Shown here: in pieces, positions 12,034-48,392 of the stretch
How the letters are laid out: every line of letters starts with the position of its first letter
Numbering within the stretch: position 1 is the first letter of the stretch
Source of the DNA: an uncultured bacterium
GTDB lineage: Bacteria; Krumholzibacteriota; Krumholzibacteriia; LZORAL124-64-63
Direction: 5' to 3'
Assembly: GCA_963732385.1 (NCBI GenBank)
Contig: CAVSZB010000007.1
Coordinates: 641,685-705,684, forward strand
DNA: 64,000 nt
The notes under the pieces: model-generated
The model's input: only the letters and a program-made list of their open reading frames with translations
Databases searched by the model: none
Told to the model about the DNA's origin: nothing
Translations under genes and position numbers: made by a program

Positions 12034-12516
12034 ATGCCACGTCCGCCCCGCTGGCCCGGCTGGCGCGCCGCCTGGCGCACGCTCGCCGGAGGGGATCATT
12101 CGAACCGCAACCTGGCCGCCGCGCTCGCGCTGGGCGTGCTGGTGGCGCCCACGCCGGTGCTCGGCCTGCACACCTGGATGGCGATCGGACTCGCCTTCAC
12201 GTTCCGCGTCAACCGCCTCGCGGCGTTCGTCGGATCGAACGTCGCCAACCCTCTGACCATGATGCCGCTGGTCTGGCTCGACATCGAACTCGGGGCCCGT
12301 CTGCTCGGCCGCCCCGCCCCCGCCTGGCCCGGGCGTGCCGAAGTCTGGGCGCAGTTGGGATGTCTCTATCTGGAGGCCTGGGCCGGGGCGCTGGTCTTGG
12401 GAGCGGCGGGCGCCCTGGCGACCTACGTTCTGGCGCGTCTGTTGTTGCCGGGGTGGCGTCGACGCGCTCAGTCCGCGGCCGCAGCCTCGTCACCAGTCAG
12501 CGGAGACGATTCCTGA
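12034..12516 (+). CDS. DUF2062-like small membrane protein
   Basis: Hydrophobic segments and a conserved-looking LGLHTWMAIGLAFTFRVNRLAAFVGSNVANPLTMMPL core are present. It is 160 aa. Its 3' end overlaps the giant ORF convergently by 49 nt. Confidence 0.55.
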   Translation: MPRPPRWPGWRAAWRTLAGGDHSNRNLAAALALGVLVAPTPVLGLHTWMAIGLAFTFRVNRLAAFVGSNVANPLTMMPLVWLDIELGARLLGRPAPAWPGRAEVWAQLGCLYLEAWAGALVLGAAGALATYVLARLLLPGWRRRAQSAAAASSPVSGDDS

Positions 12517-15500
12517 TACAGCACCATCACGCGCTCGGTGGCGCGGGCGAACACCCGGTAGTGCCGCTGGCGGGACTCACTTCCGAGACAGAGATAGACC
12601 AGGGTGTCGGCGCCGGTGGCACCGCTCGTTTCCGGGGTCGCCAGGGTCACGACCGGCGCGTGGGGCGTCGCCGCGGGAACGGCGAGCCAGTCGGCCAGTT
12701 CCAGCCGCCAGGCTGCCCACAGCGGCCGCTTCACGAAGTGGCCAGGATTCTCGCCGCCGGCTTCGCGCACCAGCCGTTCCACCCGCCGCTGCACCTCGGG
12801 CCGGGCCAGCCACGGAGAGGCCCAGCCACTGCGGGAGACCCGTGCGTGGATCTCCGCGAGCGAGGCCTCTGCCAGCGACTCGGCCGCGGCGAGCCAACGG
12901 GCATAGGCCGCTGCGCCGGACGGATCGAGCAGCACCGGCAGGAGCGGCGTCCGGGCGCCGTCCGCCTTGCCGGCCTGCGCGGCGATATCGCTGACGACGG
13001 CGACGAATTCCAGCGTGCCGGGCAGCAGCAGCGAATCCAGTTCCCAGCGCAGAACCGGCAGCCAGCCCCGGCCGGCGAGCGAGCGCCCGATATAGAGCAG
13101 ATCATCCCGGGCCGTCGCCACGACGGCACTGCGACGGCCGAGCCGGCCGGAAGACTCTTCCGCCCCCAGGTGCGCCACCACTTCGTCCAGGCTCGCCGCG
13201 CCATGCGCCACCGCCTCCCCGCGCTCACGCCGCAAGGCACGACCGCGCGCCGGCCGACCGTCAGGTTCGGCCGCAAAGTGACGCGTTTCCTCCCACACCC
13301 GGCGCGTCTGCGCCCGCTGATCGACACAGTCCACGACCCGCTCCTGGGCAGGAGTGGTCAGGAACAGATGCTCCCAGGGGGCCTCGGCGGCGGCCGGATC
13401 GACCGTCACCAGCAGACGACCGCCGCGATAACGTTGCTGGACGGCGAAGCGGGTCTCGCGCGGCAGCGCCTCCGCATCGATCAGCAGCGCCGTCTCCCGC
13501 GCCGGGTCGCCCGGCAGATATCGACCGGTGAGGGGCGTGGCGCCGGCGGGCGGCGTGCCCTCGGGCGCGATGAAGAGTGCCGGCGCGACCGCCGCGTCGA
13601 CGTCGCGCCGCCAGGCCAGATGGACCCGCGCCGCCACCGCGGACGATGGACACCAGACACTCACCTCGCCGGGCCGCAGCGCGCCGGACGCCGCGGCGTC
13701 AGCCAGCCCGGCGGCCACGGCGGCCAGACGCCCGGTGCCGGCCGGTCCGCGCAGGACGAGCCATCCCGGCTCGGGGCCGGCGAGCAGGTGAGCCACTTTT
13801 GCGGCCGCCTCCGGCGCCGGCGCTCCGACCACGGGTCGCTGCTGCGGCGCCCGGCTCCGCGCCTCTGCCGGCGCGGTCCCGGCGCCCACGCCTGACTCCG
13901 CGCCGAGACGCGCCGCCTGGCCCGTGCGCCAGGCATCCCCATCGGTCAGCAACGCGACCGTGCGGGCGCGGGCCGCCGCCGGTGCGTCCGCCAGCCAGGC
14001 GAGCGCCGACGTGTCGAGCGCCTCTGCCAGCGGCGCGCCCTCGATCCACCAGGCTCCCAGCAGGCAGCCGACCATCGCCACTTCGGACGGCCAGGCCTCA
14101 CCCGGCGCGAGTGCCACTCGTGCTCCCCCGGAGTCACACACGGCCGTCGCCAGCAGGGCGGTCGCCGCGCCGGCGAACCGTTCCGCCTCCTGCGACAGTC
14201 GCTCGGCCACGGCGCGCGGCCGACCCAGCGTGCCAAGCAGCCTGCGGGAGGAGAACAACACCCCTTCGGGCGCGCGCCAGAGCAGCTCCTCCGTCCCGGT
14301 AGTCCCGCGGAACAGATCACCACCGCCACGCACCGACGCCGCGCTCCGCAGGCGGAGCGACATGGCGAGCAGGAACCGGTCAAGCCAGGCCAGATCTTCT
14401 TCCGTATCACCGTCCCCGCCGACTGCCAGATCGCAGACGACCGGCAAGCCCTCCACCGCCCCTTCGAGCCAGGCCGGCAACCGCACCGCGGCCAGGTCCG
14501 CGGCGCGCCCGAGGCGGTACTCCAACTCTGCGAGCGGCAGCGCCAGACGCAATATCGCGGGCTCGTCGGCGCGCCCGGAGTGCGCCGGTTCACAACCGGT
14601 TTCCAGCACGCTCAGCCAGGCCAGCGTGGAGAGCGACGCAACAACGGTCTCGGTCGGCAAGCCGGTCAGCGCCTCCACCACCGCCGCCGGCAGCGTGCCG
14701 CGACAGGTGCGCGCCCACCCGGGCAACTCGGAGCCTGTGCCGACGGGCACGAGCGCGAGCGACCGCTTCACCCGCTCCAGCGCCGGCGGCAACGCCGGAA
14801 CATCCAGATCATCGAGGTGGCTGGCCACGATCAGCGGGCGGCCGGAGCTCGACATCCCCTCTCCGACCCCGGTGCTCAGACCGAATCGGACAACCGACCC
14901 GTACGGCAGGTCCACCCCTTCGTCGTCCAGTTGCAGCACCCGCCACAGGCTTCCGTCCGGTCCGTTTGCTTCCAGCCGCCCGTTCGCTTCTCCGACAACA
15001 AACCCCATACAGGCAAGTTCTTCTTTTATAATGGAATAATCTGCTTTTCTCACATGACACACGAACTCGTGGTCGGGTGGCGCGCGGTGCCGCATGCCGT
15101 CCAGACGCGCCCTCAGAACGGCTCTTCGCCGCCCCTCACGCTGTGCGCTGCTCTGCCAGGTGGAGAGGTCGAGCCCGCAGGCTGCACAGGCCGGCCTTGC
15201 CCCCACCAGCGGCATCGCCCCGGCGCAGTCGGGACAGAGGGCCGACGCGCTCTCGCCCGGCCAGAACTCCTCGGCAGCATCGATCAACAACTCCGGATCT
15301 GCCATCTTCCCAACGGGCTGCGAATTTTCGGCGAGAAAGTGGGCGAACAGGCGGCGCCAGGGGCCGGCCAGACCGCCGAGACAGAAATCGGTGCGAGGCA
15401 GATCGCGGGCCAGGAACCGCAACGCCACCGCAGCCCCGAGCCGTGGTCGCGGTCCGCTCGGCAACCAGGCCTCCAGCCCGAGCACGAACGCCGCCAGCGG

Positions 15501-18500
15501 CGGCCGCGAAGCGATGGCGGCGCGCAACCCCGGATCGGCCAGCGTTTCCGGCGCGGCCCAGAGAACCGGTCCGAGCGGCGGACGGGGCGCGGTCGCGCCA
15601 TCCACTCCGGCGACCGTCGGCGCCGCCGTGGGAAAGACCGCCGCCAGAGCTCCCGCCCCCATCGGCGGCGCCGGCCCGACCGCGAGCAGCCATGCCCCGG
15701 TCTCGCCGCGCTCCCGCGCCGTCGCGACACTCCGCAGCCACGCCGTCCAGACCGCCGCGCCGTCGCCATCGAGCAGCCGGGCGCCGCGCGGCGACGGCTC
15801 CGACTCAGCCTCGCCCGATCCGGCCCACGGCGCCTCCGGGTCGGAAACGGCTCCCTCCTCTCGGCGCCAGGCCGCGACCACCTCCATACCCACCAACGGC
15901 ACCGCTCCGCGCCGGCGCAGGGAGCCGCGTCGGGTCTTCAGCCCCGGCTTCGCCTGCGGCAGATCGTAGCCGACGGCGCCCCCGGCAACGACCCTCGCCA
16001 GCACATCTTCCCCGCGCGCGGGCAGACCCGCGGCCCCGAAGCCGCCCGGCAGCGGAAAACGGCGGCACCAGCGCGGATCGGCCACATCGACAGACGCCGC
16101 ACCGCAGGCCAGCAGGGCGTTCACTTCGAGGCTGCAGAGTCGCCGCTCGTCCGTGAGGGCGACCGCCCGTTCACGATCGGCCAGCGCCCACGCGTCGGGC
16201 CGATCGGCGGCGGGCCTCACATGGTCGGCAACGCCCAGGCTGTCGAGCACCGGAACCACCAGACGCGCACCTGCCAGCGAGGCGGACGTTACCGCTTCGC
16301 TCCACAGTTCCGCGGGATCGAGACAGTCGGGCGGACCGCTGCCGGCCTCGAGGCTGAGTCGTCCGGCGGCGAACGCGCGCCACATTGCCACCGCCGCAGC
16401 CCCGTGCGCCGGCAGCGCCACCACCGGCCGCTCCCCGTCCGCCATCAGGCGCGTCACGTGCCCCAGTCCGCCTGCCCCTGCCTCGTCGGCCAGCACGCAG
16501 GCATCCGGCGCCACGCCTCCGCACGCCAGCGCCAGCGGGGCGTGCCCCCCTTCCCCGGCGAGGCTCGCCTCGACCGCGCCGTACGGCGCCAGCCACGCCG
16601 TCAACAGCGCCGCGAGATCGTCCCCCAGAAAACAGCCGTCGCGGACCAGCGAAAGATGCCGGTGTCCGCGTCGCGCCAGCTTCGCATGCAGTTCCTCCGG
16701 TCGGGCGAGTCCGGCGCGCCGGAGCTGCCAGTGGATCCGCGCGCTGTCCAGGAAGATCCAGGCCGCTTCTCCCCCCTCCCGCACCCCCCAGATCGTGTCG
16801 CGGATCGGATCGCGATCCCGCAGGCGAGAGGGAGGTCCCACGACCACGCACGATTGCCGCGCCCGCGCGGCGTATTCCCCGGCCCACGGGTCGTCGGCGC
16901 CCGCTTCGCCCGGGATCACGCGGGGCAACGAGTCGGCCAGTGCGGCGTGCCGATCCACGACCGGCAACACCCCGGTCGCCCGCGGACGGAGCCGGAGGTG
17001 ATCGAGAAGATCGCCGTTGTGGGACTCGCTCAACCGCAACCAGTGGAAAAGAGGCAGCAGATCAGGTTCCGCTGCCCGCGACGCCGCAGAGTCGGCCGCC
17101 GGCAGCGCCTCCAGCCAGGCCAGTGCCGCCCGCAGCGCATGCACCTCTCCCCCGGGGGGGATGAGCGTGATGCCGCGCCTTCCGGAGACCGCCGACGCCA
17201 GGTCGGCCAGGCGCGCGGCCTGGTCCAGAACCACCCGCCAGACAGCCTCATCCGCTCCCCAGGCGCGCAGCACGGCGAACGGACGGGGCGAGGCCAGCAG
17301 CAGGGCGGCGGCGGACGACAGCGCCGGCCGCCTCTCCACCACGTCCGCGGAAACCGCGCCCAACTCAGGATCGGGACGCTCGGCGAGCGGCGGCAGACGC
17401 CATTCGGCGCCGACCGCGACGTCATCCAGGGAGCCGCCCTGCCCCGCAGCCTGGAAGCGGGCCACGAACACCGCCGCCCGGTCGCCGCGGGAGCCGAGCC
17501 GCCGCACCCCCGCCCGGGTCCGCGGATCGAGCCCGCGCAACCGGGCAAGGCACGCCAGCCAGAGGAATCCGGCGTCGAGCGCAGCCGCCAGCTCCGGAGC
17601 CGCGGCCGAACGTGACGCGTCAGACACTTCACCGGCGGCGTCCGGGGGCGCGTCCCCAGCCGGCGGGGCCAGCAGCGGATGGCCGGTCTGCCGCTCCCAC
17701 GTCGCGCGCCAGGCGACCTCCTGCAATCGCCTGAGCCGGGTCGCAGCCTCCGGGGTCAGCCCATTCGCCGGCAGTTGCGATTCCAGCAGCGCGACCGCAA
17801 ACGGTCCCACCGGCTCGCCGGCGCAGTCATCCCCGAGTTCGCCCCAGAGTCCCCGCCGCCCTTCATCCCACCGGACCAGCCGCCCGCGGCAGGGGCGCAG
17901 GAGTCGAAGCAGGACCTCCGGATCGTCGCCTGCCCGCCAGAGGGCCACGTCACGCGGTTCGTCGTCGCGCCACAGCACGCAGGTCAGCCCCTGCGACGAC
18001 ATCGCCAAAGACGCCCACGCCTCGGCCGGGGAGTCGGCCGGGTTGCGTCGCTCCAGCGCGCGGCGGGCTGCGCCGAAACGTAGCGCGACCGCGCCGTCGG
18101 CGGGAGGACCGACCTCCAGCAGCGCACGCGCCTCGTCGTGCCGCGGGACCGGCAGGTGCTGCGCGTCCAGGTTCGCCAACAGTTCGATCAGGCGCACGCG
18201 CGCCGCCTCGGCACGCGACCGGAAGGGCTCGGGCAGGGCCAGACAGGCCCGGTAGAGCGGGATCGCCGCCGCCGCGTCGCCTGCGTGGGCGTCGGTCAGA
18301 CGGGCGACGCGCCAGATCCGTTCCGCGTGGAATGGTCCGGACTGCGAGAAATATGCCGCTTCGAGCAGGCGCAGCACCGCCTGCGCCAGCGCAATCCGGC
18401 CGGCCGGCGCAACGTTGCCGGCCGCGGCCAGAGCGTCCAGCCACCCCTCAACCTGGGCTCCCAACGCCACACGATCGGCTTCTGCCAGCGGCAGATCGGC

Positions 18501-18974
18501 ACGGATCAGCGCCGGATCGAAGGGGCGACCGGCGCGGCAGGCAGCGGCGATCGTCGCCGGCAGAAGACGCGCCGCAACCGCGCCATCGCACGGATGGAGC
18601 CGGCTGGCAGTGGTGAGACGCAGCGCCGTGGTCAGGAGCTCGAAATCCTCTGCCGGCGCCCCCGCCGGTCCGCCGGCCGGAAAAACGCCCTGGCTCAGAG
18701 CCGCGGCCACCGCGGCACCGGCCCGGTCCAGGTAGTCCGCGCGAAACGTCTCCGCCGCGGCGGGCCAGCGGCCGGACGAGTGCGCATCGGCCTCGGCGCG
18801 ACGCGCCCGTCCCCAAAGCCGGCGTGCGGCATCGGTGACCGTCTCCGAGAGGAAGACCCGGCCGGGCGAGCGCTCCCGCAGCTCGAGCGCCGTGGCAAAG
18901 GCCGCCTCGGCCTCGGCGAGAGCCCCCGCAGCGAGACGCTCACGGGCGGTCGCCAGCGCATCCCAGTAGCTCAT
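12468..18974 (-). CDS. Giant multidomain protein (2168 aa): low-complexity N-terminal 1200 aa, Cys4 zinc ribbon, C-terminal SF1-helicase-like domain with degenerate ATPase motifs
   Basis: The reading frame is uninterrupted for 6.5 kb. The ATG at 18974 (MSYWDAL) has GGAGGG 8 nt upstream and lies 35 nt downstream of leuS on the same strand. Motifs are CPDCAGAMPLVGARPACAACG, GPAGTGRL (Walker A-like), LLIDAEA (Walker B-like) and YRVFARATERVMVL (motif VI-like). Confidence 0.75.
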   Translation of the reverse strand: MSYWDALATARERLAAGALAEAEAAFATALELRERSPGRVFLSETVTDAARRLWGRARRAEADAHSSGRWPAAAETFRADYLDRAGAAVAAALSQGVFPAGGPAGAPAEDFELLTTALRLTTASRLHPCDGAVAARLLPATIAAACRAGRPFDPALIRADLPLAEADRVALGAQVEGWLDALAAAGNVAPAGRIALAQAVLRLLEAAYFSQSGPFHAERIWRVARLTDAHAGDAAAAIPLYRACLALPEPFRSRAEAARVRLIELLANLDAQHLPVPRHDEARALLEVGPPADGAVALRFGAARRALERRNPADSPAEAWASLAMSSQGLTCVLWRDDEPRDVALWRAGDDPEVLLRLLRPCRGRLVRWDEGRRGLWGELGDDCAGEPVGPFAVALLESQLPANGLTPEAATRLRRLQEVAWRATWERQTGHPLLAPPAGDAPPDAAGEVSDASRSAAAPELAAALDAGFLWLACLARLRGLDPRTRAGVRRLGSRGDRAAVFVARFQAAGQGGSLDDVAVGAEWRLPPLAERPDPELGAVSADVVERRPALSSAAALLLASPRPFAVLRAWGADEAVWRVVLDQAARLADLASAVSGRRGITLIPPGGEVHALRAALAWLEALPAADSAASRAAEPDLLPLFHWLRLSESHNGDLLDHLRLRPRATGVLPVVDRHAALADSLPRVIPGEAGADDPWAGEYAARARQSCVVVGPPSRLRDRDPIRDTIWGVREGGEAAWIFLDSARIHWQLRRAGLARPEELHAKLARRGHRHLSLVRDGCFLGDDLAALLTAWLAPYGAVEASLAGEGGHAPLALACGGVAPDACVLADEAGAGGLGHVTRLMADGERPVVALPAHGAAAVAMWRAFAAGRLSLEAGSGPPDCLDPAELWSEAVTSASLAGARLVVPVLDSLGVADHVRPAADRPDAWALADRERAVALTDERRLCSLEVNALLACGAASVDVADPRWCRRFPLPGGFGAAGLPARGEDVLARVVAGGAVGYDLPQAKPGLKTRRGSLRRRGAVPLVGMEVVAAWRREEGAVSDPEAPWAGSGEAESEPSPRGARLLDGDGAAVWTAWLRSVATARERGETGAWLLAVGPAPPMGAGALAAVFPTAAPTVAGVDGATAPRPPLGPVLWAAPETLADPGLRAAIASRPPLAAFVLGLEAWLPSGPRPRLGAAVALRFLARDLPRTDFCLGGLAGPWRRLFAHFLAENSQPVGKMADPELLIDAAEEFWPGESASALCPDCAGAMPLVGARPACAACGLDLSTWQSSAQREGRRRAVLRARLDGMRHRAPPDHEFVCHVRKADYSIIKEELACMGFVVGEANGRLEANGPDGSLWRVLQLDDEGVDLPYGSVVRFGLSTGVGEGMSSSGRPLIVASHLDDLDVPALPPALERVKRSLALVPVGTGSELPGWARTCRGTLPAAVVEALTGLPTETVVASLSTLAWLSVLETGCEPAHSGRADEPAILRLALPLAELEYRLGRAADLAAVRLPAWLEGAVEGLPVVCDLAVGGDGDTEEDLAWLDRFLLAMSLRLRSAASVRGGGDLFRGTTGTEELLWRAPEGVLFSSRRLLGTLGRPRAVAERLSQEAERFAGAATALLATAVCDSGGARVALAPGEAWPSEVAMVGCLLGAWWIEGAPLAEALDTSALAWLADAPAAARARTVALLTDGDAWRTGQAARLGAESGVGAGTAPAEARSRAPQQRPVVGAPAPEAAAKVAHLLAGPEPGWLVLRGPAGTGRLAAVAAGLADAAASGALRPGEVSVWCPSSAVAARVHLAWRRDVDAAVAPALFIAPEGTPPAGATPLTGRYLPGDPARETALLIDAEALPRETRFAVQQRYRGGRLLVTVDPAAAEAPWEHLFLTTPAQERVVDCVDQRAQTRRVWEETRHFAAEPDGRPARGRALRRERGEAVAHGAASLDEVVAHLGAEESSGRLGRRSAVVATARDDLLYIGRSLAGRGWLPVLRWELDSLLLPGTLEFVAVVSDIAAQAGKADGARTPLLPVLLDPSGAAAYARWLAAAESLAEASLAEIHARVSRSGWASPWLARPEVQRRVERLVREAGGENPGHFVKRPLWAAWRLELADWLAVPAATPHAPVVTLATPETSGATGADTLVYLCLGSESRQRHYRVFARATERVMVLYQESSPLTGDEAAAAD

Positions 18975-19009
18975 GTTGCCCGCCCTCCGTGGCGGGGTCG
19001 TCGCGCCGG

Positions 19010-21553
19010 TCAGGCGTCGGCAACGACGATGTTCACCAGCTTGCCCGGCACCACGATCACCCTGCGGACCGGGCGACCGGCGATCAGTTCCGGTATCCGT
19101 CCGTGGCGCTGCGCGGCCGCCTCGATGCTGGCGCGATCGGCATCGACCGGGGACTCCATCTCGTCGCGAATCCGGCCGTTGATCTGCAGGACCAGCTTCA
19201 CCGTGGTGCGCAGCAGCGCCGTTTCGTCCCACTGCGGCCACGGCTGGTCGAACACGCTCGGCAGCCCGCCGAGCCGCGTCCACAACTCTTCGCCCAGGTG
19301 CGGCGCGAACGGCGCGAGCATCCGGACCAGCGCGGCGAGCGCTTCGCGGTACGCCTCATCATCCAGCCCCGCCGCGTTGCGCCCGGCGTAGGCGTAGATG
19401 GCGTTGGTCAGCTCCATCAGGCGGCTGAGCGCGGTGTTGAAATGGAACCGCTGCAGATCGACCGTGCAATGTTTGATCGACCCGTGCAGCCAGCGGCGCA
19501 ACTCGGCCCGCCGGTCGGAGAGTTCGCCCGCCGGGATCGGCGGCGGCTCGAACGGCGCATCGCCGGCCGGCGAACGCCCCTCGGCAGCCGCGTCCAGCAG
19601 CCGCCAGACCCGGTGCAGATAGCGATGGATCCCCTCGATGCCGTCGTCCTTCCAGTCGCCGCCGGCTTCGAACGCGAACCCGAACATCAGGTAGACGCGC
19701 AGCGTGTCCGTGCCGTACCGCCCGAGGTAGACCTCTGGGTTGACCACGTTGCCGCGCGACTTGGCCATCTTCTCGCCATCGCGGGTGATCAGCCCCTGGT
19801 GCACCAGTCGCTGGAACGGCTCGTCGAACGCCAGGTGACCCTGGTCATGGAGGAATTTCGTGATGAAGCGGGAGTAGATCAGATGGCCGCAGGTGTGCTC
19901 CGGGCCGCCGACGTACTGGTCCACCGGCAGCCAGGCGTTGACCAGCTCGCGGTCGAACGGCCGGTCGGCCAGATGCGGCGTAAGGTAGCGCAGGAAATAC
20001 CACGAACTGCAGACGAAGGTGTCCATCGTATCGGGGTCGCGCTGCGCCGCCCCGCCGCAGCGCGGACAGGCCACATCCATGTAGGTGGGAGAACTGGCCA
20101 GCGGCGATTTGCCGTGCGGACGGAAATCGACATCGTCCGGCAGCCGGACCGGCAGCTCCAACTCCGGCACCGGGACCATGCCGCAGGCCGGGCAGTGCAC
20201 GATCGGGATCGGCGCGCCCCAGTAGCGCTGGCGGCTGATCAGCCAGTCCCGCAGACGGTACTGCACCGTGGCGCGTCCCCGTCCCGTCGCGGCGAGATCG
20301 GCGGCGATCCTGGCCCCGCCCTCGGCGCTGGTGAGACCGTCGTAGGCGCCGGAGGCGGTCATGACGCCAGGCTCCGTGCGGGCCGCCGTCAGCGGCGCCG
20401 CGCCGTCCTCGTCCGGCCCCCGGATGACCCGTCGCACCGGCAGTCCGTGGACCGCCGCGAAAGCGAAGTCCCGCTCGTCGTGACCCGGCACCGCCATCAC
20501 AGCGCCGGTGCCATAGGAGCCGATCACGTAGTCGGCCACCCAGACCGGCACCGCTTCGCCGTTGATCGGGTTGACGGCCACCGCGCCGGTGGCCACCCCG
20601 GTCTTCTCCCGGGTCGTGCTCGTGCGATCGATCTCGCTCAGCAGCGCGGCGCGCCGGGCGTACTCCGCCACGGCCTCCCGGCGCGACGACTCCGTCAGCG
20701 CGGCGACCAGCGGGTGCTCCGGCGCGAGCACCACGTAGGTGACCCCGAACAGCGTGTCCGGGCGGGTGGTGAACACCTGCAGCGGCGCCGCCCCGTCGGG
20801 GAGGGGGTCGAAACCGCTCGGCAACGCCTCCTGCAGGCTCGCGGCCGGCACGCCAAAGACGATCTCCGCCCCTTCGCTCCGTCCGATCCAGTTGATCTGG
20901 CGCTTCTTCGTCTCGGCCGGCCAGTCTATCCGATCGAGCCCCTCGATCAGGCGATCCGCGTAGTCGGTGATGCGGAAGCACCACTGCGTGAGCTTGCGCC
21001 GTGCGACGAGGCTCTGGCAACGCCAGCAGGCCCCCTCCTCCACCTGTTCGTTGGCCAGCACCGTCTGGCAGGAGTCGCACCAGTTGACCGGCATCTCGGC
21101 GCGATAGGCCAGCCCGGCGGCGTACAGCTGCAGGAAGAGCCACTGGTTCCACTTGTAGTACTCGGGACGGTGCGTGGCGATCTCGTGGTCGAAATCGTAC
21201 ATCGCCCCCATCGCCCGCAACTGTTCGCGGATGAAGGTGATGTTCTCCTCGGTGTGCCGCCCGGGCTGCACGCCGGTCTTGATCGCGAAATTCTCGGCCG
21301 GCAGCCCGAAACTGTCGTAGCCGATCGGCTCGAAGACGCGCGCCCCCTGCATGCGCCGGAACCGCGCCCAGGTATCTGCCGGCACGAAGTTGAACCAATG
21401 CCCCAGATGCAGCTTGTCCCCGGAGGGGTAGAGGAACATCACCAGGCAGTAGCACTTGTGCGCGGCGCGCGTGAGGTCCGTCCGGTGGAGACCGTCCATC
21501 TCCCAGCGCTGGCGCCAGCGGCTTTCGACCTCGGCGAAATTGTACTCGGCCAT
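19010..21553 (-). CDS. leuS: Leucine--tRNA ligase
   Basis: The HLGH (HIGH-class) and KMAKSRGN (KMSKS) motifs, CP1 editing region and MAEYNFAEVESRW N-terminus are present. The start is an ATG at 21553. Confidence 0.95.
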   Translation of the reverse strand: MAEYNFAEVESRWRQRWEMDGLHRTDLTRAAHKCYCLVMFLYPSGDKLHLGHWFNFVPADTWARFRRMQGARVFEPIGYDSFGLPAENFAIKTGVQPGRHTEENITFIREQLRAMGAMYDFDHEIATHRPEYYKWNQWLFLQLYAAGLAYRAEMPVNWCDSCQTVLANEQVEEGACWRCQSLVARRKLTQWCFRITDYADRLIEGLDRIDWPAETKKRQINWIGRSEGAEIVFGVPAASLQEALPSGFDPLPDGAAPLQVFTTRPDTLFGVTYVVLAPEHPLVAALTESSRREAVAEYARRAALLSEIDRTSTTREKTGVATGAVAVNPINGEAVPVWVADYVIGSYGTGAVMAVPGHDERDFAFAAVHGLPVRRVIRGPDEDGAAPLTAARTEPGVMTASGAYDGLTSAEGGARIAADLAATGRGRATVQYRLRDWLISRQRYWGAPIPIVHCPACGMVPVPELELPVRLPDDVDFRPHGKSPLASSPTYMDVACPRCGGAAQRDPDTMDTFVCSSWYFLRYLTPHLADRPFDRELVNAWLPVDQYVGGPEHTCGHLIYSRFITKFLHDQGHLAFDEPFQRLVHQGLITRDGEKMAKSRGNVVNPEVYLGRYGTDTLRVYLMFGFAFEAGGDWKDDGIEGIHRYLHRVWRLLDAAAEGRSPAGDAPFEPPPIPAGELSDRRAELRRWLHGSIKHCTVDLQRFHFNTALSRLMELTNAIYAYAGRNAAGLDDEAYREALAALVRMLAPFAPHLGEELWTRLGGLPSVFDQPWPQWDETALLRTTVKLVLQINGRIRDEMESPVDADRASIEAAAQRHGRIPELIAGRPVRRVIVVPGKLVNIVVADA

Positions 21554-21645
21554 GCTGTCCTTCCGGTCGGGCGACACCTGATAGCCGTCGCGCCGATCCC
21601 CGCACGGTCAGAAAACTGTAAAGGGATGGGGCTGGGCGGTCGATT

Positions 21646-22662
21646 TTGGGAGTGCGCGATGGCGCAACGATAACCGCATTCCGGCCCCCGTTCCAGCGCG
21701 AATTCATCGCCGCGGGGCACCAAGGACGGCGCGTGTCCAGGATCAGGCTCGACGGTTACGCCGAAACGGTTCGTTCCGGCGCGCCGGTCGCCACGGCATC
21801 GCCCGTAGCGACCCTCGCGGGGGAGTACGGCGCGCGCGACATCGAACAGGCGATCCGCCGCCTGCCGCCGCTGCCGACCACCCTGGGCGACCTGGTCGAC
21901 AAGCTGAACAATCCCGACTCGAGCATTAGCGACATCACGTCGCGCATCCGCACCGATCCGTCGCTCACGACGCGCCTGCTGAGGATGGCCAACAGCGCCT
22001 TCTACGGCGCGCGCTCCTACATCACGGAAGTGGAGCGGGCCGTGATCGTGCTCGGGTTCCGCACCACGCGCAACCTGGTCGCGGCCGCCGCCGTGGCCAG
22101 CCATTTCTGCTCTTTCCAGAACATCCACAGCTTCTCCGCTCAGGGCATGTATCGGCACTCCCTGGCGACGGCTGTCTTCTGCCAGATGATCGCCTTGCGC
22201 GCCAACATCGGCGGGCTGACGCCGGAGGAGTACTTCGTTGCGGGGCTCCTGCACGATATCGGACGCATCCCCCTCGCTCAGCACTACAAACGCCACCGCC
22301 CACAGTTCGAGGAGACGCCCCACGACGTGGCGGCACAGCACGCGCTGGAGAGGGAACTGTTCGGGATCGACCATGCCGCCGTCGGCGGGATGGTGGCTGA
22401 GCACTGGAAACTGCCGGAAATGTACCGCGAAATCATCACCGGGCATCACGATGCGACAGCGCTCGCCGCCAGCCGTTTCACAGCGCTGGTGGCGCTGGGC
22501 GACCGCTGGGTGAACGCCCAGGGCATCGGCCGCAGCGAACCGTTCGACACCCTGGGCGAGGCGGCGGATCTGGCGGTCCGCGCCGGCGTGGAGACCGCTC
22601 TGATCGAGGAGATCGCGCCGGAACTTCGCAAGGAACTCGAACTCTATCTGACGGCCATGTAG
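21646..22662 (+). CDS. HDOD domain signalling protein
   Basis: Motifs LPPLPTTLGDLVDKLNNPDSSISDITSRIRTDPSLTTRLLRMANSAFYG and LLHDIGRIPLA (HD-related output domain) are present. The true start may be later, a GTG near 21730. Confidence 0.8.
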   Translation: MGVRDGATITAFRPPFQREFIAAGHQGRRVSRIRLDGYAETVRSGAPVATASPVATLAGEYGARDIEQAIRRLPPLPTTLGDLVDKLNNPDSSISDITSRIRTDPSLTTRLLRMANSAFYGARSYITEVERAVIVLGFRTTRNLVAAAAVASHFCSFQNIHSFSAQGMYRHSLATAVFCQMIALRANIGGLTPEEYFVAGLLHDIGRIPLAQHYKRHRPQFEETPHDVAAQHALERELFGIDHAAVGGMVAEHWKLPEMYREIITGHHDATALAASRFTALVALGDRWVNAQGIGRSEPFDTLGEAADLAVRAGVETALIEEIAPELRKELELYLTAM

Positions 22663-22677
22663 AGCCGTCCCGGGGCC

Positions 22678-24471
22678 ATGAACGAAACATCCGTCCGCGA
22701 AAAGATTCACACCGTCCCCCTCCCTGGCGCCGCGCTGCGCCGTCTCGGCGAGGCGCTCGGGCTGAAACCGCACTATGAAGCGCTCGACCGGCTGCTCGCC
22801 GAGCAGTTCGGCGTCGCGCGCTGGATCAACTGTCTGGTGGGCGATGACGGGGCGCCGCTGCCGGTGGCCTCCGCAACGCCCGGCGCCAAACCGGACGCGC
22901 GCGAGGTCGAACTGCTCGACCCTTCCGCGGTGCGGGGGCGCAGCCTCCTGCCGGGCGTGGCGCTCGACGCGCTGCCCAGCGGGCCCTTCACCCTTCCCCC
23001 GGCGGCCCGCCCTTACCAGGCCGGTCTCGCCTACCGCTTCCGCCACCGGACGCTCGGCGTGCTGCTCGTGGAGATGAACGCCGACGCGGCCCCGACCCCG
23101 GAATTGCTGACCACGCTGGCCGCGCTGGTGGAGGAGGCGTTCGCACCCCTCTGCTTCCGTGAGCACACGATCGAGCAGGTTTTCCAGGAGAAGGCTCTCT
23201 TCAGCGCAAAGCTGGAGTACCTCGGCGAGATGGGACGACTGGCGGGGGATCTCGACCTCAAGGTCCTGCTCAACAAGATCATGGAACTGACCATGGAGTT
23301 CGCGGGGGCCGAAGTCGGTTCGCTGGTGCTGATCGAGGACGAACAGCCGCAGACCAGACTGGACTGGGGCCTGCCGCACGAGGCGCTGCTCTCGCTCACC
23401 GACCGAGACGGCGAACCGCTCATTTTCCAGACCATCGGTCGGTCCGAGCCGCTCTGGCTAGAGGCGGGCGAATTCCTGGTCCCGCCGCAGATGCCCTACC
23501 GCTTCCAGCGCCTGGCGATCCTGCCGCTGCGCACGCGCGACAGCTGGCTGGGCGCGGTTTGTCTCGTCACCTCCAGCCCGAGCGCCGCCTTCCATCCCGG
23601 CAAGCTCGACGGCCTCAGCGCCGGAATCAGTCTCGCGGCGACGGCCCTCGACAACGGGCGTCTGTTCCAGGTCAAGCTAGAGCGCCAGCGCGAGATGCGG
23701 AACATGGAGATCGCGAGCGACATCCAGAAGGCGCTGCTCCCACGCGCGATTCCCGACCTGCAGGGGGTGGCGGTCGTCGGCACGAACGTCGCGGCGCGGA
23801 TGATCGGCGGCGACTACTACGACTTCTTCCCCTTCCCGGACGGCAGCCTCGGCCTGATCGTGGCCGACGTCGCCGGCAAGGGAGTGGCGGCCTCGCTCAT
23901 CATGACCTCCACGCGCATGCTGATCCGCAGCATCGCCGGGCCCGACGTCACCGTAGAGGAAGTGATCCGTCGCACCAACCTGATGCTGCAGGCCGAGGCG
24001 TGCGGCGGCCAGTTCGTCACCGCAAACTACGTGCGCATCGATCCCCACCGGCTGGTCATGGAGATCTGCACCGCCGGTCACGAGCCGGTCATCGTCTACC
24101 GACCCGGCGAGTCGCGGTTCCTGTTCGCCGAAAGCCGCGCGCTGCCGCTCGGCATCACCCCCGACGCGGTCTACACCCGCGAGGTCATCCCGCTGGCGCC
24201 GGGCGATCTCGTGTTTCTCTATACCGACGGCATCAACGAAGCGATGAACAAGGAGCGGGAGCAGTTCGGAATCGGTCGTCTGCAGGAGACGATCCGGGGT
24301 GCCTATCCCGACACGATCGAAGCGGTCATGAACACGATCCTTACCGCCGTGGACTGGCACAGCGCCGGCATGCCGCGCCATGACGACACAACCATCGTCG
24401 TGGCGCAGGTGCGTCCCGACGCGCCCCTGGACCCGAGAGGAGGCGTTGTCTCAGACAACGAAAAACCATGA
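22678..24471 (+). CDS. GAF-domain PP2C-family (SpoIIE/RsbU-like) serine phosphatase
   Basis: The C-terminal PP2C block DIQKALLP...GGDYYDFF...GLIVADVAGKGVAASLIM...LYTDGINEA is present. The N-terminal 350 aa look like GAF domains. Confidence 0.85.
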   Translation: MNETSVREKIHTVPLPGAALRRLGEALGLKPHYEALDRLLAEQFGVARWINCLVGDDGAPLPVASATPGAKPDAREVELLDPSAVRGRSLLPGVALDALPSGPFTLPPAARPYQAGLAYRFRHRTLGVLLVEMNADAAPTPELLTTLAALVEEAFAPLCFREHTIEQVFQEKALFSAKLEYLGEMGRLAGDLDLKVLLNKIMELTMEFAGAEVGSLVLIEDEQPQTRLDWGLPHEALLSLTDRDGEPLIFQTIGRSEPLWLEAGEFLVPPQMPYRFQRLAILPLRTRDSWLGAVCLVTSSPSAAFHPGKLDGLSAGISLAATALDNGRLFQVKLERQREMRNMEIASDIQKALLPRAIPDLQGVAVVGTNVAARMIGGDYYDFFPFPDGSLGLIVADVAGKGVAASLIMTSTRMLIRSIAGPDVTVEEVIRRTNLMLQAEACGGQFVTANYVRIDPHRLVMEICTAGHEPVIVYRPGESRFLFAESRALPLGITPDAVYTREVIPLAPGDLVFLYTDGINEAMNKEREQFGIGRLQETIRGAYPDTIEAVMNTILTAVDWHSAGMPRHDDTTIVVAQVRPDAPLDPRGGVVSDNEKP

Positions 24472-24835: not shown

Positions 24836-27800
24836 TCAGCGCGCCACCACGACGCGCCCCCTGAGCACCCCGCCCGGGTGCGTCAGGACCACCAGGTAGG
24901 CGCCGGCCGCCACGGGGCGGCCGTCGTCGCCGCGAGCATCCCAGGCGAGAACCCCCGTTTCCGCCAGATTCCCCGTGGCCAGCCGCCGGACGCGCCGGCC
25001 GCGCAGATCGTACACTTCCAGACACCGCGGACCGTTGGCCGGGATGCCGCGCCAGGCCACGCGCAGACGACCGGCCGCGGGGTTGGGCGAGACCGTGAGC
25101 ACACCGCGCGACAATACGACCGGCCCTGCGGTCCCGGTCGGAGCGGACTCGGAGAGTGGGCAGGCGCCGCTGTTGCGTCCGTCACCGCGGACGCCGACCC
25201 AGTTCGCGCCCTCGCCGCGGGGAAGCGCCCCCACCTGCGCGGTCAACGCGGCACCGACCGCGGTTACGCGGACCCAGCCGGTCCCGTCCCGGGTCGACAT
25301 CAGAGCTGCGCCAAGACCGGGCGGCACCACTGCGAGCGGCCCGCCCACGGCCTGGGGGGACCGCTCCGCGCCCACGATTCCTGTCCCCTCCGTCAGCCAG
25401 CCGAGACAGGCTCCCCTCAGATTCGGGGTGCCGGCGATTAGTTCCTCCCAGCCGATCCCCGCCAAAAACTGCGGTTCCGGCGCCGACGACCCGTTGCTGT
25501 TCCAGGCGAGCGGCGCCGGCAGCAGGGTCCAGCGAGGCTGCAGATTGCCATCGGACGTGAACCCCTTCACCAGCACGCCCGCCAGCGGCGTGGCGCTGAC
25601 CAGCCCGTCGGCCGACAGACAGATCGAGGCCAGCCGCCAGCGCAGGGAATCGTGCGCGACCCCGGTGACATAGAGCCCCTGCACGACCACCCGGGGCCCC
25701 CCCCGACCGTCTCACGATAGACGGCCGGATCGGACAGTGACAGCCAGCGTCCACCGTCGGGCGCCTGGGCCTCGGCACCGTCGCCCGCCGCGGCGACCCC
25801 GTTCCCCCGCAGAATCCGGAACACGACTTCGCGCTGCTCCAGCCCGGCCGGATGCACGAGCACGATCTCGTGCCGGCCATCACCGTCGCGGTCCGCCAGC
25901 ACCGGGGCACGCAGTCCGGACACCGCCAGTGTGACCGGCCAGCCCGGCAGCAGTCCGGCATCGCCCGCAACCGTGATCCGCCCGCTGGGAAATGCGACCA
26001 CATACTCTTCGCCCGGCTCTCCGTCGAGCTGTCCTACTGCGGGGGGGAGCGGCTCCGTGCCATCAAGCGCGAGCGTCGCCACGATTGCGCCGGCCGGCGT
26101 CACCCGCTTCAGGATTCCGGTCGGGCTGACGACCGCGACCTCACGCCCGCCGTCGAACCGCTCCCGACCGACCGGCGCCGTGAGCGGGACATTCGCGGAA
26201 GCCGCGTCGACAACCATGTAACTGCCGGAGGCGCCCAGCAGGTAAAGCTTGCCGAACGCCGAGGCGACCGCGATTTCGTCACCCGGCAGAGCGTCGAGAT
26301 TCCAGACCAGCGGCGCCGTGAGAGGACCCTGCAGATTCGTGGGGAGGAAGATGGAGACCGGCCAGCCGACGCGCTCGTGCCCCGTTCCGTCGAGCGCGTG
26401 CACCAATCGGGCCTGTGGATCGATCGTGGCCGCCCCGGTGCAGATGAGCGTGGGCGTGCCGGTCGCCCCGAGAACGCCGGCGACCGGCCAGCCAGCCAGA
26501 CCGCCACCGAGGGTGGCGGACCAGGCCGGGTCGGTCGATTCCGCCGGGTCGGTCAGGGTGATGGTGACGCGTCCGGTGCCTGACAGCCTTTTCACCACCA
26601 CGAAACAGAAGCCCTGTTCCGGAGTCCGGAAGCTGCCCAGCTCCCGCCCACCCATGCCAGCCGCGTCGACCCGGATCGACGGCAGCCCCTCACCCGGGTC
26701 GAGCAGACGGCGGATATCGTGGATCTCGAGCCCCACGTCGAGACCAACCGAAGGCACCGCCTCCACCACGCACTGCCGGTCCGGCTGCAGGGACAGCCGC
26801 CGCGCCACGCTCCGCCGCCCCGCGGTGCCACCGAGCGAATCGACGGCCGAGCCCCCGCCCGGCAACGGCGCCAGAAGCGCCTCGATGGCGGCCGGCACCT
26901 GGAGCAGCCCCCAGCCCCGCACGCTGTCGGGCACGGCCAGCCAGGGCGCTAGCGCCAGCCGCGCCGCGCCGTCTGGCGTCTCGGACACCAGCACCGGCGC
27001 GGCGGTTCCGCGCAGCAGGGCCGAAACCAGATCGCCGACAACCGCACCTTCGTCGGGCCACCCCTCCTTGCGCAGTGCCTCCAACACGAGGAACTCCCCC
27101 GCCGCCACGTGGGCCGCCGCGAGCGAGGTGCCTCGCCGTTCCGACGTGCTGTCATCGGGCTCATTGTCGGTCGTGCAAATGCCGCCGGCCGCCTGCAGCA
27201 CGCCGCCGCCGGGAGCCACGAGATCAGGCTTCCTGTCTGGCGGCAGACCGTGTCCGCTCGTGCCGGCGAGTTCGCCGGCATCATTGACCGCCCCCACACC
27301 GACCACCGATGGCAGCCGGGCCGGGTAGCCGGGCGGCAATATGGCGCCTCCGTTACCCATAGCCGCCACGACCAGGATGCCGGCGGCGCGCAACTCGTCC
27401 ATCGCCGCGCCAAGGCCGAGATCGAGGTCCCAGTTGACCGCGCAGAGCGCGACCCGCACCCGGCACTGCGCGCGGTGATCCAGCAGCCAGGCGCAGGCGG
27501 CCAGGAAATCCCCCTGCCACTGACGCCACACGCCGTCGAAGTCATAGAACTTGACGATCGTCAGCCGGCCCGAGGGGGCCAGACCGCGATACCGTACGTC
27601 GAGTTCGCCTGCTCCGGCGACGACTCCCGCCAGGGCCGTGCCGTGCCAGTGGTAATCCCACGGTCCGGCGGCGAGCGGGAAATCATCCGTAACGTCGTGC
27701 CAGCCGACCACTTTGTATTCGAGGAACAGGGGCCACCCGAACTCTGCGGAGCTCCAGTCGAGGGCATCCCCGACGAGGGGCGGCGGACCATCGCGGTTGT

Positions 27801-48307: not shown

Positions 48308-48392
48308 TGGTGCCCGGGGCGGGATTTGAACCCGCACGACTTTCGCCACTGCCCCCTCAAGACAGCGTGTCTACCAATTCCACCACCCGGGC
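48308..48392 (-). tRNA. tRNA-Leu (anticodon GAG), CCA encoded
   Basis: I folded it by hand as GCCCGGG / D-arm GTGG-AATTGGTAGA-CAC / anticodon stem CTGTC-TTGAGGG-GGCAG / long variable arm / T-arm GCGGG-TTCAAAT-CCCGC / CCCGGGC-ACCA. Confidence 0.9.

Follow-up and report, generated by a model that had tools for sequence, protein, structure and literature searches.

A conserved giant protein of Krumholzibacteriota-type bacteria with two predicted helicase-fold modules and missing or altered ATPase motifs

Results

Gene organization and coding status

The window, the whole 64,000-nucleotide stretch of DNA analysed in this study, carries a giant open reading frame (ORF) on its minus strand, directly downstream of leuS (Table 1). 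The frame contains no stop codon from position 19283 to 12468, and its ATG occupies positions 18974-18972. The upstream ORF is of the leuS type, with the Pfam tRNA-synt_1, editing and anticodon domains, and its stop ends at 19010. The gap between leuS and the giant gene is 35 nt, and neither a terminator-like nor a promoter-like site was found in it. An earlier reading of this DNA, made without database searches (hereafter the sequence-only reading), had given the place of the ORF, its Shine-Dalgarno start and its distance from leuS exactly.

Table 1. Features of the giant ORF and its immediate surroundings (positions in the window; aa, residues of the giant protein)
Feature	Position	Strand	Remarks
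DUF2062 gene	12034..12516	plus	convergent; shares 49 nt with the 3' end of the giant ORF; context
Giant ORF	12468..18974	minus	2168 aa and stop; orthologues and codon-position test
SF1 (RecD/UvrD-like) two-RecA helicase fold, aa 1720-2160	12495..13817	minus	ATPase motifs altered
Motif-II-like stretch, aa 1829-1836	13467..13490	minus	after strand 1828-1831
Walker-A-like G-P-A-G-T-G-R-L, aa 1743-1750	13725..13748	minus
Middle region, aa 1401-1719	13818..14774	minus	mixed helices and strands
Alpha/beta domain 3' of the ribbon, aa 1270-1400	14775..15167	minus	AF2 model
Putative Cys4 zinc ribbon CPDC...CAAC, aa 1247-1266	15177..15236	minus	Cys at 1247/1250/1263/1266
XPD/DinG-like SF2 helicase-fold module (predicted), aa 557-1200	15375..17306	minus	no canonical Walker A
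Motif H-W-x-R-h-h-E-[ST]-H-N-G-D-L-[LA]-D, aa 644-659	16998..17045	minus	most conserved of the family
Beta-meander (aa 319-346) and helical linker, aa 311-556	17307..18044	minus	AF2 secondary structure
TPR-like all-helical solenoid (predicted), aa 1-310	18045..18974	minus	N-terminus M-x-Y-W invariant
Shine-Dalgarno GGAGGG	18983..18988	minus	8 nt 5' of the ATG; read directly off the sequence
leuS	19010..21577	minus	directly upstream; context, outside the family signature

Chance or antisense open frames are common in DNA of 74% GC, and the giant ORF might be such a frame and no gene. Its GC content by codon position (0.80/0.59/0.82) is ambiguous taken alone, the first and third positions being nearly equal, and just 3 stops interrupt its mirror antisense frame, leaving plus-strand ORFs of 806 aa and 1011 aa. 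Given the base composition of the region itself, however, the probability of a stop is 0.015 per codon and that of 2168 open codons is 6e-15, and the longest ORF in 200 shuffles reached 778 aa. Orthologues keep the full-length frame at 27-46% identity, lower-GC genomes included, and share invariant Trp, Gly and charged residues; the AF2 models are confident as well. In comparison with a 79%-identical orthologue (L005), 121, 123 and 330 differences were counted at codon positions 1, 2 and 3, respectively, so that most substitutions fall on the third position. The full-length orthologues, down to 27% identity, and this third-position bias therefore settle the coding status, and the non-gene explanation, already refuted, keeps a virtually negligible probability. 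The sequence-only reading had allowed for a frame unconserved in relatives or for an antisense-like codon signal. The frame is kept in at least 38 full-length orthologues, and although GC by position is ambiguous, conservation and the third-position bias decide for a gene. The giant ORF is a genuine, conserved, single-copy chromosomal gene. Its product has no transmembrane segment and no signal-like N-terminus, and is a soluble, cytoplasmic protein of 2168 residues. The antisense strand of this region invites false gene calls.

Gene neighbourhood and leuS

Across the family, the gene order running from yraN through the giant gene to a beta-eliminating lyase is kept, and the genes closest to the giant gene are rnhB, yraN and mgsA, all DNA-related. 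The upstream neighbours include the rpsP-rimM-trmD-rplS cluster, to which leuS is added in one clade. No motor or nuclease partner gene is conserved beside the giant gene, and Pfam and PDB searches with the two conserved hypothetical proteins encoded downstream found nothing.

The sequence-only reading had proposed to check whether the linkage to leuS is conserved. The linkage holds in one clade only, in which leuS lies directly upstream in the window and in 13 related loci. Co-transcription of leuS and the giant gene is plausible in the window genome, given a gap of 35 nt with no terminator-like site in it. A scan for terminators and promoters found two terminator-like sites within the ORF, fewer than in shuffles, and was uninformative. 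The short gap, the Shine-Dalgarno sequence of the giant gene's own, the lack of a promoter-like or terminator-like site in between and the recurrence of the arrangement in 13 other loci could also be explained by a functional coupling, in which the giant protein would be a synthetase-associated, co-transcribed scaffold. In other clades, however, the giant gene is retained with yraN or an S8 peptidase gene upstream and leuS elsewhere, and no tRNA- or synthetase-related domain was found in the giant protein. The coupling is thus largely refuted and very unlikely. The closeness of the two genes is no argument for a functional tie to an aminoacyl-tRNA synthetase; the position beside leuS would be an accident of local gene order.

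Family and distribution

Homology searches identified at least 38 full-length genomic orthologues of the giant protein (27-46% identity) and 16 database proteins. Orthologues are 2000-2300 aa long, and the counts over 39 given below refer to the window protein and 38 full-length orthologues. The 16 came from a database of 5.8e9 proteins, and two further queries of it with alignments, made to gain depth, yielded no others. An exhaustive search of 1.84e9 (1.84 billion) representative proteins with a profile of the N-terminal half gave 85 matches, all of which were orthologues or fragments. The giant gene was found at 53 loci in 53 different species assemblies, one copy each, and most of the carriers whose taxonomic label is informative are Candidatus Krumholzibacteriota. 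The phyletic distribution, which the sequence-only reading had suggested examining, is thus that of a single-copy gene in a Krumholzibacteriota-type lineage.

The window protein, the 16 database homologues and 4 lower-GC orthologues were screened against Pfam and NCBIfam. No helicase model (AAA_11, AAA_12, DUF4011 or other) was found even at E<=1, and the only yield was sub-threshold zinc-ribbon matches. Sequence searches of the PDB with the single protein and with profiles of 16 and 39 sequences found no helicase, the profile matches being zinc ribbons only. PADLOC models gave no match among three diverse orthologues, tblastn of plasmids and phages found no homologue, and the literature on Krumholzibacteriota and pseudohelicases yielded no description of the protein. 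The earlier statement that the protein has no recognisable family is therefore borne out by Pfam, NCBIfam, PADLOC and PDB sequences, and the annotated DUF4011/AAA_11/AAA_12-type helicase family that would have made it ordinary did not appear. The giant protein belongs to a family that has not been described before and is limited to uncultured bacteria of the Krumholzibacteriota type.

Structure of the N-terminal half

The structural analysis is based on two AF2 half-models, built from a 12-sequence alignment and containing long low-confidence loops (pLDDT 71.9 and 77.8; pTM 0.70 and 0.64). In the model of the N-terminal half, all-helical structure is limited to aa 1-310 and 408-511, and aa 557-1200 form an alpha/beta module. 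Self-BLAST of the giant protein detected no internal repeat. The two halves are not an internal duplication, since hhalign of the N-half against the C-half gave no match.

Foldseek matched aa 557-1200 with the XPD/DinG type of SF2 helicases; the fold match is moderate, and no match of the N-half reached E 1e-3. In this module (hereafter the N-module), strand 557-561 leads into a 4-residue loop, T-G-x-P, where a P-loop would be expected, and a helix comes next. GK[ST] is therefore absent. The candidate motif II is WVFLD743-S-AAVH748, which is not DEAH, and the candidate motif III is H773-LSLLTGA. The most conserved motif of the family (aa 644-659), in which W645, R647, E650, H652, N653, G654, D655, L656 and D658 are identical in 39/39 members, sits in an insertion between strand 1 and the candidate motif II. 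We considered V-E-[ST]-H-N of this motif as a degenerate XPD "DEAHN" box. This assignment was rejected, because the model shows a helix end and loop in the insertion with no preceding beta-strand.

The N-module differs from XPD, Rad3 and DinG in several respects. Walker A and the DEAH box are missing. The lists of invariant and near-invariant residues hold no conserved Cys across aa 1-1200, and the 4-Cys Fe-S cluster domain is absent. No Pfam DEAD_2, Helicase_C_2 or ResIII match was obtained for the giant protein, the PDB profile search finds no helicase, and the hhalign probability of the N-half against E. coli DinG is 0.09. Some DinG subgroups also have no Fe-S cluster (pFeS) or have pseudo-domains, according to part of a DinG review (PMC11981726), and among the subgroups named in that part there is no 2000-aa protein with a fused SF1 module. 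Taken together, the models suggest with moderate confidence that aa ~557-1200 adopt an XPD/DinG-like SF2 fold in which the Walker A loop and the DEAH box have been lost.

Putative zinc ribbon and middle region

All four Cys of the putative zinc ribbon are present in 19/39 family members, and the first CxxC alone in 8. The ribbon matched the Pfam models DZR_2 (E 0.0094) and, in 4 members, Zn_ribbon_3 (E 1e-3), both below the gathering score; in the PDB profile search, weak matches with RpoM and eL37 were obtained at E 0.02-0.1. Alignment gaps and fragment lengths indicate that the alpha/beta domain behind it is missing from the ribbon-less orthologues. The middle region contains the invariant residues G1438, W1453, G1509, D1532, G1571, R1578 and W1642.

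Structure of the C-terminal module

The model of aa 1720-2160 (hereafter the C-module) has tandem RecA-like domains with SF1 topology. The Walker-A-like loop follows the family pattern G-x-x-G-[ST]-G-R-[HL], with Arg1749 in 37/39 members and Lys in 1/39; Lys in place of Arg is kept in a few orthologues (L003, P0004). The next position carries His in 21 members of 39, Leu in 7, and Thr, Met or Val in others. At motif II, the family follows h-h-h-[CL]-E-[AV]-Q-R-F, with LLIDAEAL in the window protein. The Walker B Asp is not conserved at its canonical position in the 39-member family; here 18 members have Cys and 16 have Leu, followed by Glu in 36/39 (Glu1833) and Gln in 34/39 (Gln1835). Of the SF1 motifs, Ia, III, V and VI can still be recognised, the last ones lying at the extreme C-terminus, and those on the nucleic-acid side have persisted. 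Motif Ia, CPDxATAAR, aligns with APTGKAAARL of RecD, although the hhalign match with motifs I and Ia of E. coli RecD is weak (E 3.2e-3, probability 10%). Judged from these patterns, the C-module has kept the scaffold motifs, and the residues for Mg-ATP are changed family-wide. ATP hydrolysis by P-loop helicases is abolished or strongly reduced when the Walker A Lys is changed to Arg and when the Walker B Asp is lost. The strong conservation of the G-x-x-G-[ST]-G-R loop and the Lys of some orthologues are, on the other hand, compatible with a working nucleotide site.

The sequence-only reading had described Ala/Leu/Arg-rich helical repeats over the first 1200 residues, followed by a Cys4 ribbon and a helicase-like C-terminus. 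The four Cys of the ribbon are present (CPDC at 1247, CAAC at 1263), and the fold agrees with the description of the C-terminus. As to the first 1200 residues, the composition is correct, but they are not helical repeats; self-BLAST found none, and about half of the supposed helical scaffold, the alpha/beta part, appears to be a second helicase-fold module of the XPD/DinG type.

Discussion

Comparison with known systems

RecC of RecBCD and AddB of AddAB are large SF1 helicase-fold subunits with missing or incomplete motor motifs, which guide or scan ssDNA and do not drive translocation. The giant protein likewise has a helicase fold with altered ATPase motifs; the resemblance is one of kind, not of homology. 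It has no sequence similarity to RecC or AddB, and RecC is missing from its best 60 fold matches. Neither a PD-(D/E)xK nuclease nor an AddB-type Fe-S domain was detected in it, and no recB, addA or recD adjoins its gene in any locus. Furthermore, it is one chain, which combines SF2-type and SF1-type modules with a TPR-like domain.

The C-module resembles SF1 helicases (RecD2/Dda/RecD and UvrD/Rep/FBH1/HelD) in its recognisable motif order I, Ia, II, III ... V, VI, and RecD-type enzymes in particular in the C-terminal location of the last motifs and in the alignment of motifs I and Ia with E. coli RecD. It departs from their Walker A consensus GxxxxGK[ST] and their motif II consensus D-E-x-Q/D, the Walker A Lys having changed to Arg and the Ser/Thr to His/Leu, and the Walker B Asp, now Cys or Leu in most members, having been lost. 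In addition, the giant protein lies below the detection of every Pfam/NCBIfam helicase model and carries ~1700 residues of unrelated N-terminal sequence. A precedent for diverged motifs on a helicase scaffold is the PriA 'pseudohelicase' of Deinococcus radiodurans, which is reported (PMC4504706) to be a lineage-specific protein of DNA metabolism that has kept the scaffold while its motifs diverged. PriA belongs to another superfamily branch, consists of one module and is clearly orthologous to a known protein, whereas the giant protein has no known orthologue outside its own family.

Possible functions of the giant protein

We consider that the giant protein may be a large nucleic-acid-handling scaffold or sensor of a new family with two altered helicase modules, working much as RecC and AddB do, both of them inactivated helicase subunits; as a whole, this account has about an even chance of being correct. 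Both modules would bind and thread single-stranded nucleic acid without processive ATP-driven motor action, the TPR-like domain would recruit partner proteins, and the P-loop of the C-module might still bind nucleotide or phosphate as a switch. The substrate is most likely DNA, a preference that comes solely from which helicase families rank first in the fold comparisons.

It is worth considering that the protein could instead be an active ATP-driven helicase or translocase. The C-module would then hydrolyse ATP through the Arg P-loop (G-x-x-G-[ST]-G-R-H-E in most members), and the DinG-like module would be an accessory DNA-binding or strand-separating element. The P-loop glycines, the Arg, Glu1833 and Gln1835 are almost invariant, Lys is present in some orthologues, and motifs Ia, III, V and VI are recognisable; strongly conserved sites are usually sites in use. 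Walker A, however, has lost its Mg-coordinating Ser/Thr and Walker B its Asp throughout the family, the residue after the Arg differs between clades (His, Leu, Thr, Met, Val), and the domain escapes every Pfam helicase model even at E<=1. An active motor would therefore seem rather unlikely. We regard as still less probable, and on the whole unlikely, that the substrate is RNA or RNP, as in ribosome biogenesis, RNA decay or HelD-like recycling of RNA polymerase. Such a role would fit the upstream rpsP-rimM-trmD-rplS cluster and, in one clade, leuS. The entire neighbourhood, however, is syntenic across the lineage, and adjacency therefore tells little about function; the nearest genes, rnhB, yraN and mgsA, relate to DNA, and the best-matching fold families on both halves are the DNA helicases XPD/DinG, FBH1, RecD2 and Dda.

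Defence systems, type IV CRISPR and Hachiman among them, also contain DinG-type and SF1 helicases, and CasDinG and HamB are among the Foldseek matches of the N-half. The giant protein might thus belong to anti-phage defence or to a mobile element. Against this, the gene is single-copy and its housekeeping position is shared by the 53 species genomes, neither a PADLOC match nor a plasmid or phage homologue was found, and no CRISPR array or effector gene lies nearby. This explanation is disfavoured and highly improbable.

A further reading can also be envisaged, although we think it a long way from probable, about as unlikely as an RNA substrate. The giant protein would be a single-chain counterpart of the two-motor machines that act at DNA ends or forks (RecBCD, AddAB, AdnAB), with one SF2 module (DinG/XPD-type, a 5'-3' family) and one SF1 module, both former ATP sites having been repurposed. 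The site of the N-module would have been rebuilt on the invariant cluster E650, H652, N653, D655, D658, D743 and H748 as a metal- or ligand-binding or catalytic centre, and that of the C-module would act as a non-hydrolysing Arg P-loop switch.

Significance

The motif E-[ST]-H-N-G-D-L-[LA]-D can serve annotators as a signature of the family, and the family itself as a taxonomic marker. We found no earlier description of a DinG/XPD-fold module without ATPase motifs joined to an SF1-fold module with an Arg P-loop, the consulted part of the DinG review (PMC11981726) included. If both modules are pseudo-helicases, the family would be the most extreme bacterial reuse of helicase scaffolds for non-motor roles so far. 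An active Arg P-loop would instead represent an unusual nucleotide site. The giant protein is conserved family-wide in single copy and serves as a marker of an entire uncultured lineage, which makes it a strong candidate for core biology specific to that lineage. Should it indeed be a counterpart of the two-motor machines, it would be a factor in genome maintenance that defines its lineage and works by a mechanism unknown from model bacteria.

The open frame and its coding status

The minus-strand frame contains no stop from 19283 to 12468 in the ORF scan of the window. The giant ORF starts at an ATG at 18974, with GGAGGG at 18988-18983, and comprises 2168 codons and a TGA. It begins 35 nt after the stop of leuS, an 855-aa ORF assigned to leucyl-tRNA synthetase by Pfam. 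The ORF described in the sequence-only reading was thus confirmed in each of these features. With the region's own composition (74% GC), the stop probability per random codon is 0.015, and 2168 open codons would be expected by chance at 6e-15; the longest ORF in 200 shuffles was 778 aa.

GC at codon positions 1/2/3 was 0.80/0.59/0.82. Since these values do not separate the ORF from its mirror antisense frame, which has only 3 stops over 6.5 kb, base composition by itself is not decisive, and it leaves room for the view that the ORF is not a gene. Three other lines, however, decide for coding. The homologues align end to end, 61 columns are invariant among the 39 family members (many of them Trp, Gly, Asp, Glu, Arg or His), and differences from the 79% identical orthologue of locus L005 number 121/123/330 at codon positions 1/2/3. 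The chance that the ORF is not a gene is negligible, and the proposed gene withstands the objection that its frame might be unconserved or antisense noise. The mirror frame holds long shadow ORFs, and automatic annotation could place genes on the wrong strand here.

Size and distribution of the family

A search of 5.8e9 proteins gave 16 proteins of 2028-2299 aa, aligning end to end at 31-90% identity, and three word-indexed searches returned the identical 16 clusters each time. When 1.84e9 cluster representatives were searched exhaustively by HMMER with the N-half (aa 1-1200) profile, only 85 proteins reached E<=1e-3, about 45 of them full-length (~1900-2300 aa) and the remainder fragments, one being a YraN-fused gene call. 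In the database protein P0049 (1621 aa), a UPF0102/YraN domain (aa 48-88) is joined to a portion of the giant protein; rather than a separate architecture, this is most likely an artefact in which gene calling or assembly fused the upstream yraN to it. A further 38 full-length orthologues were taken from genome loci, and the motif [ER][ST]HNGDL[LA]D, with one genome per species, located 53 loci, each in its own assembly. The family is very small.

The 53 records are titled Candidatus Krumholzibacteriota/Krumholzibacteriia (16), "uncultured Fibrobacteraceae" (17, all third-party assemblies), Gemmatimonadales (1) and unnamed bacterium (19). Since the "Fibrobacteraceae" label occurs in every family clade, beside Krumholzibacteriota labels and with identical synteny, we infer that all of these genomes belong to one lineage; in the clade of the window itself, however, no record names a phylum explicitly. 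All three names occur on genomes with the same gene and synteny (L004-L056), and the public taxonomy labels look inconsistent. In the closest genomic orthologue (L004 10001-16498, 87% identity, from a 'Microflora Danica' MAG) the giant ORF is not intact, the longest ORF of that locus being 1309 aa and upstream of the match; frameshift errors or a true pseudogene may account for this.

Fold and motifs of the two halves

On the window protein, the Pfam matches were limited to DZR_2 (E 0.0094) and one to PCP_red (E 0.042), each sub-threshold, and NCBIfam gave no match. PADLOC gave none either. The outcome of Pfam and NCBIfam was the same for the 16 homologues and four lower-GC orthologues, with Zn_ribbon_3 as the top match (E 1e-3, four members). 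Sequence searches of the PDB, also with profiles of 16 and 39 sequences, returned nothing but weak matches to zinc ribbons and a single chance Rossmann segment. The claim of no recognisable family therefore holds for these collections; a clear match to DUF4011, AAA_11 or AAA_12, which would have made the protein ordinary, was not obtained.

AlphaFold2 models built on 12-sequence alignments were usable for both the N-half (pLDDT 77.8, pTM 0.64) and the C-half (aa 1201-2168; pLDDT 71.9, pTM 0.70). The first 1200 residues had been read as helical repeats; in the model, two stretches are helical, but no single long repeat is formed. The helicase-like C-terminus was borne out by the C-half model. 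The top Foldseek matches of the N-half were CasDinG and DinG, at E 4e-3 to 7e-3 only. An hhalign comparison showed no sequence relationship between the halves (probability 0.12). The protein is thus not an internal duplication of one module but joins a probably SF2-type module to an SF1-type one. It has no TM segment.

Features of the giant protein and of its surroundings
Feature	Position	Strand	Basis or remark
Paired helices	aa 1-310		AlphaFold2 model
Beta-meander	aa 319-346		AlphaFold2 model
Helices	aa 408-511		AlphaFold2 model
Alpha/beta domains	aa 557-1200		AlphaFold2 model
SF1 two-RecA core	aa ~1720-2160		C-half model
Shadow ORF, 806 aa	11475-13895	+	Mirror antisense frame of giant gene
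Shadow ORF, 1011 aa	14580-17615	+	Mirror antisense frame of giant gene
DUF2062 gene	12034-12516	+	Pfam E 1.8e-25; convergent, 49-nt overlap with giant ORF 3' end
Hypothetical protein, about 220 aa	9856-10485	-	After beta-eliminating lyase
Hypothetical protein, about 290 aa	8825-9577	-	After beta-eliminating lyase

The N-module (~aa 557-1200) has no P-loop, because only T-G-x-P lies between strand 557-561 and the helix, and it cannot bind ATP canonically. By position, the candidates for motif II and motif III are FLD743-S-AAVH748, which comes after strand 737-741, and H773-LSLLTGA on strand 772-777. The top-conserved motif of the family, H-W-x-R-h-h-E-[ST]-H-N-G-D-L-[LA]-D (aa 644-659), sits in the insertion that houses the Fe-S domain in XPD; the N-half has no conserved cysteine in the 39-member alignment. 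E-[ST]-H-N was not accepted as a decayed DEAHN box, since the model places it at a helix end and loop rather than behind a strand. The Cys4 ribbon noticed earlier is present at 1247-1266; with the following alpha/beta domain it occurs in 19 of the 39 members, the window's included, and eight keep the first CxxC alone.

In P-loop helicases, the beta/gamma-phosphates and Mg are held by three residues: the Walker A Lys, the Ser/Thr beside it and the Walker B Asp. In the C-module, the loop after strand 1737-1742 reads G-x-x-G-[ST]-G-R-[HL], with Arg at the Walker A position in 37/39 members and Lys in one (P0004 also has Lys). At the Ser/Thr position, 21 members have His, seven have Leu and the rest vary; the Walker B Asp position, after strand 1828-1831, is Cys in 18 and Leu in 16, followed by Glu (36/39), x and Gln (34/39). 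Motif Ia, CPDxATAAR, aligns to RecD APTGKAAARL, and the P-loop of the C-module aligns to that of RecD (hhalign E 3.2e-3, probability 10%). Strong conservation is seen in a motif-III-like TVDP..EPWEHLFLTTPR and in the C-terminal YLCLG[ST]E...HY.V..R..D..LVLYQE.SPLP.

Gene neighbourhood

In tblastn of neighbour proteins at all loci, the order rplS, rnhB, yraN, a variable stretch, the giant gene, a beta-eliminating lyase and two unknown proteins is near-invariant, with PFK and MgsA following on the opposite strand; the window has this order. The variable stretch is empty (yraN 120-165 nt upstream), holds an S8 peptidase of about 1270 aa, or is a block with leuS as its last gene. Co-transcription with leuS is plausible in the window genome, because a site scan of the 35-nt gap found nothing terminator-like or promoter-like. 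The linkage did not prove to be a family trait: leuS is directly upstream only in the window and 13 related loci, all of one clade. The adjacency belongs to the gene order of one clade and is no functional signature, and functional coupling to leuS is very unlikely.

The two hypothetical proteins behind the lyase recur at nearly all related loci; neither gave a Pfam or PDB sequence match, and they may be further lineage-specific genes of the same conserved block. An opposite-strand DUF2062 gene also lies just downstream in L003, L004, L006, L007, L039 and L041, and is missing from most other loci. Upstream of leuS, an HDOD/HD-domain protein and a GAF-SpoIIE (PP2C) phosphatase are divergently encoded (21646-24471, +). 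In L003 a STAS-domain protein follows these genes, which points to a partner-switching signalling module that, in the window's clade, was inserted between yraN and leuS. Between yraN and the giant gene, L003 and L010 (6063-9863) have a large S8 subtilase whose C-terminal domain is FlgD_ig-like; in the window, the scan covered only the FlgD_ig-bearing C-terminal ORF (24836-25711, -). The sole RNA gene in the window is tRNA-Leu(GAG) at 48308-48392 (-) (ARAGORN; Rfam at gathering thresholds).

Possible function and classification

Because all three ATP residues are changed lineage-wide and the nucleic-acid-side motifs are kept, the C-module would most simply be a nucleic-acid-binding pseudo-helicase; it may also serve as a nucleotide- or phosphate-binding switch. 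Lys-to-Arg Walker A mutants usually bind nucleotide and hydrolyse it poorly. An active motor with an unusual Arg P-loop is rather unlikely.

A DNA role is favoured because the best-matching families of both halves are DNA helicases and because of the nearest conserved neighbours, rnhB, yraN and mgsA, genes that relate to DNA; this synteny is weak support. An RNA or RNP role is less probable still than an active motor. The plasmid and phage collections held no homologues, and a defence or mobile-element protein is highly improbable. We would give about an even chance to a DNA-handling scaffold or sensor whose TPR-like domain docks partner proteins, a proposal drawn solely from folds and motifs; our confidence in the anatomy is much higher. 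The nearest functional analogy, by analogy only, is RecC and AddB, helicase-fold subunits through which ssDNA is channelled and read; unlike them, the giant protein shows no homology signal, nuclease domain or partner gene. The original observation is confirmed, and its interpretation is supported in part only.

The fold is shared with SF1 helicases and probably with XPD/DinG helicases. Since the defining motif and sequence tests failed for both, the protein was filed in neither family. Among the bacterial DinG-like subgroups named in the portion consulted of a 2025 review (PMC11981726), nothing is comparable.

The protein family is new, and so is its domain architecture, which combines known folds. 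Lineage-specific giant proteins are not rare in uncultured phyla; this one defines its lineage and carries two helicase cores, both altered.
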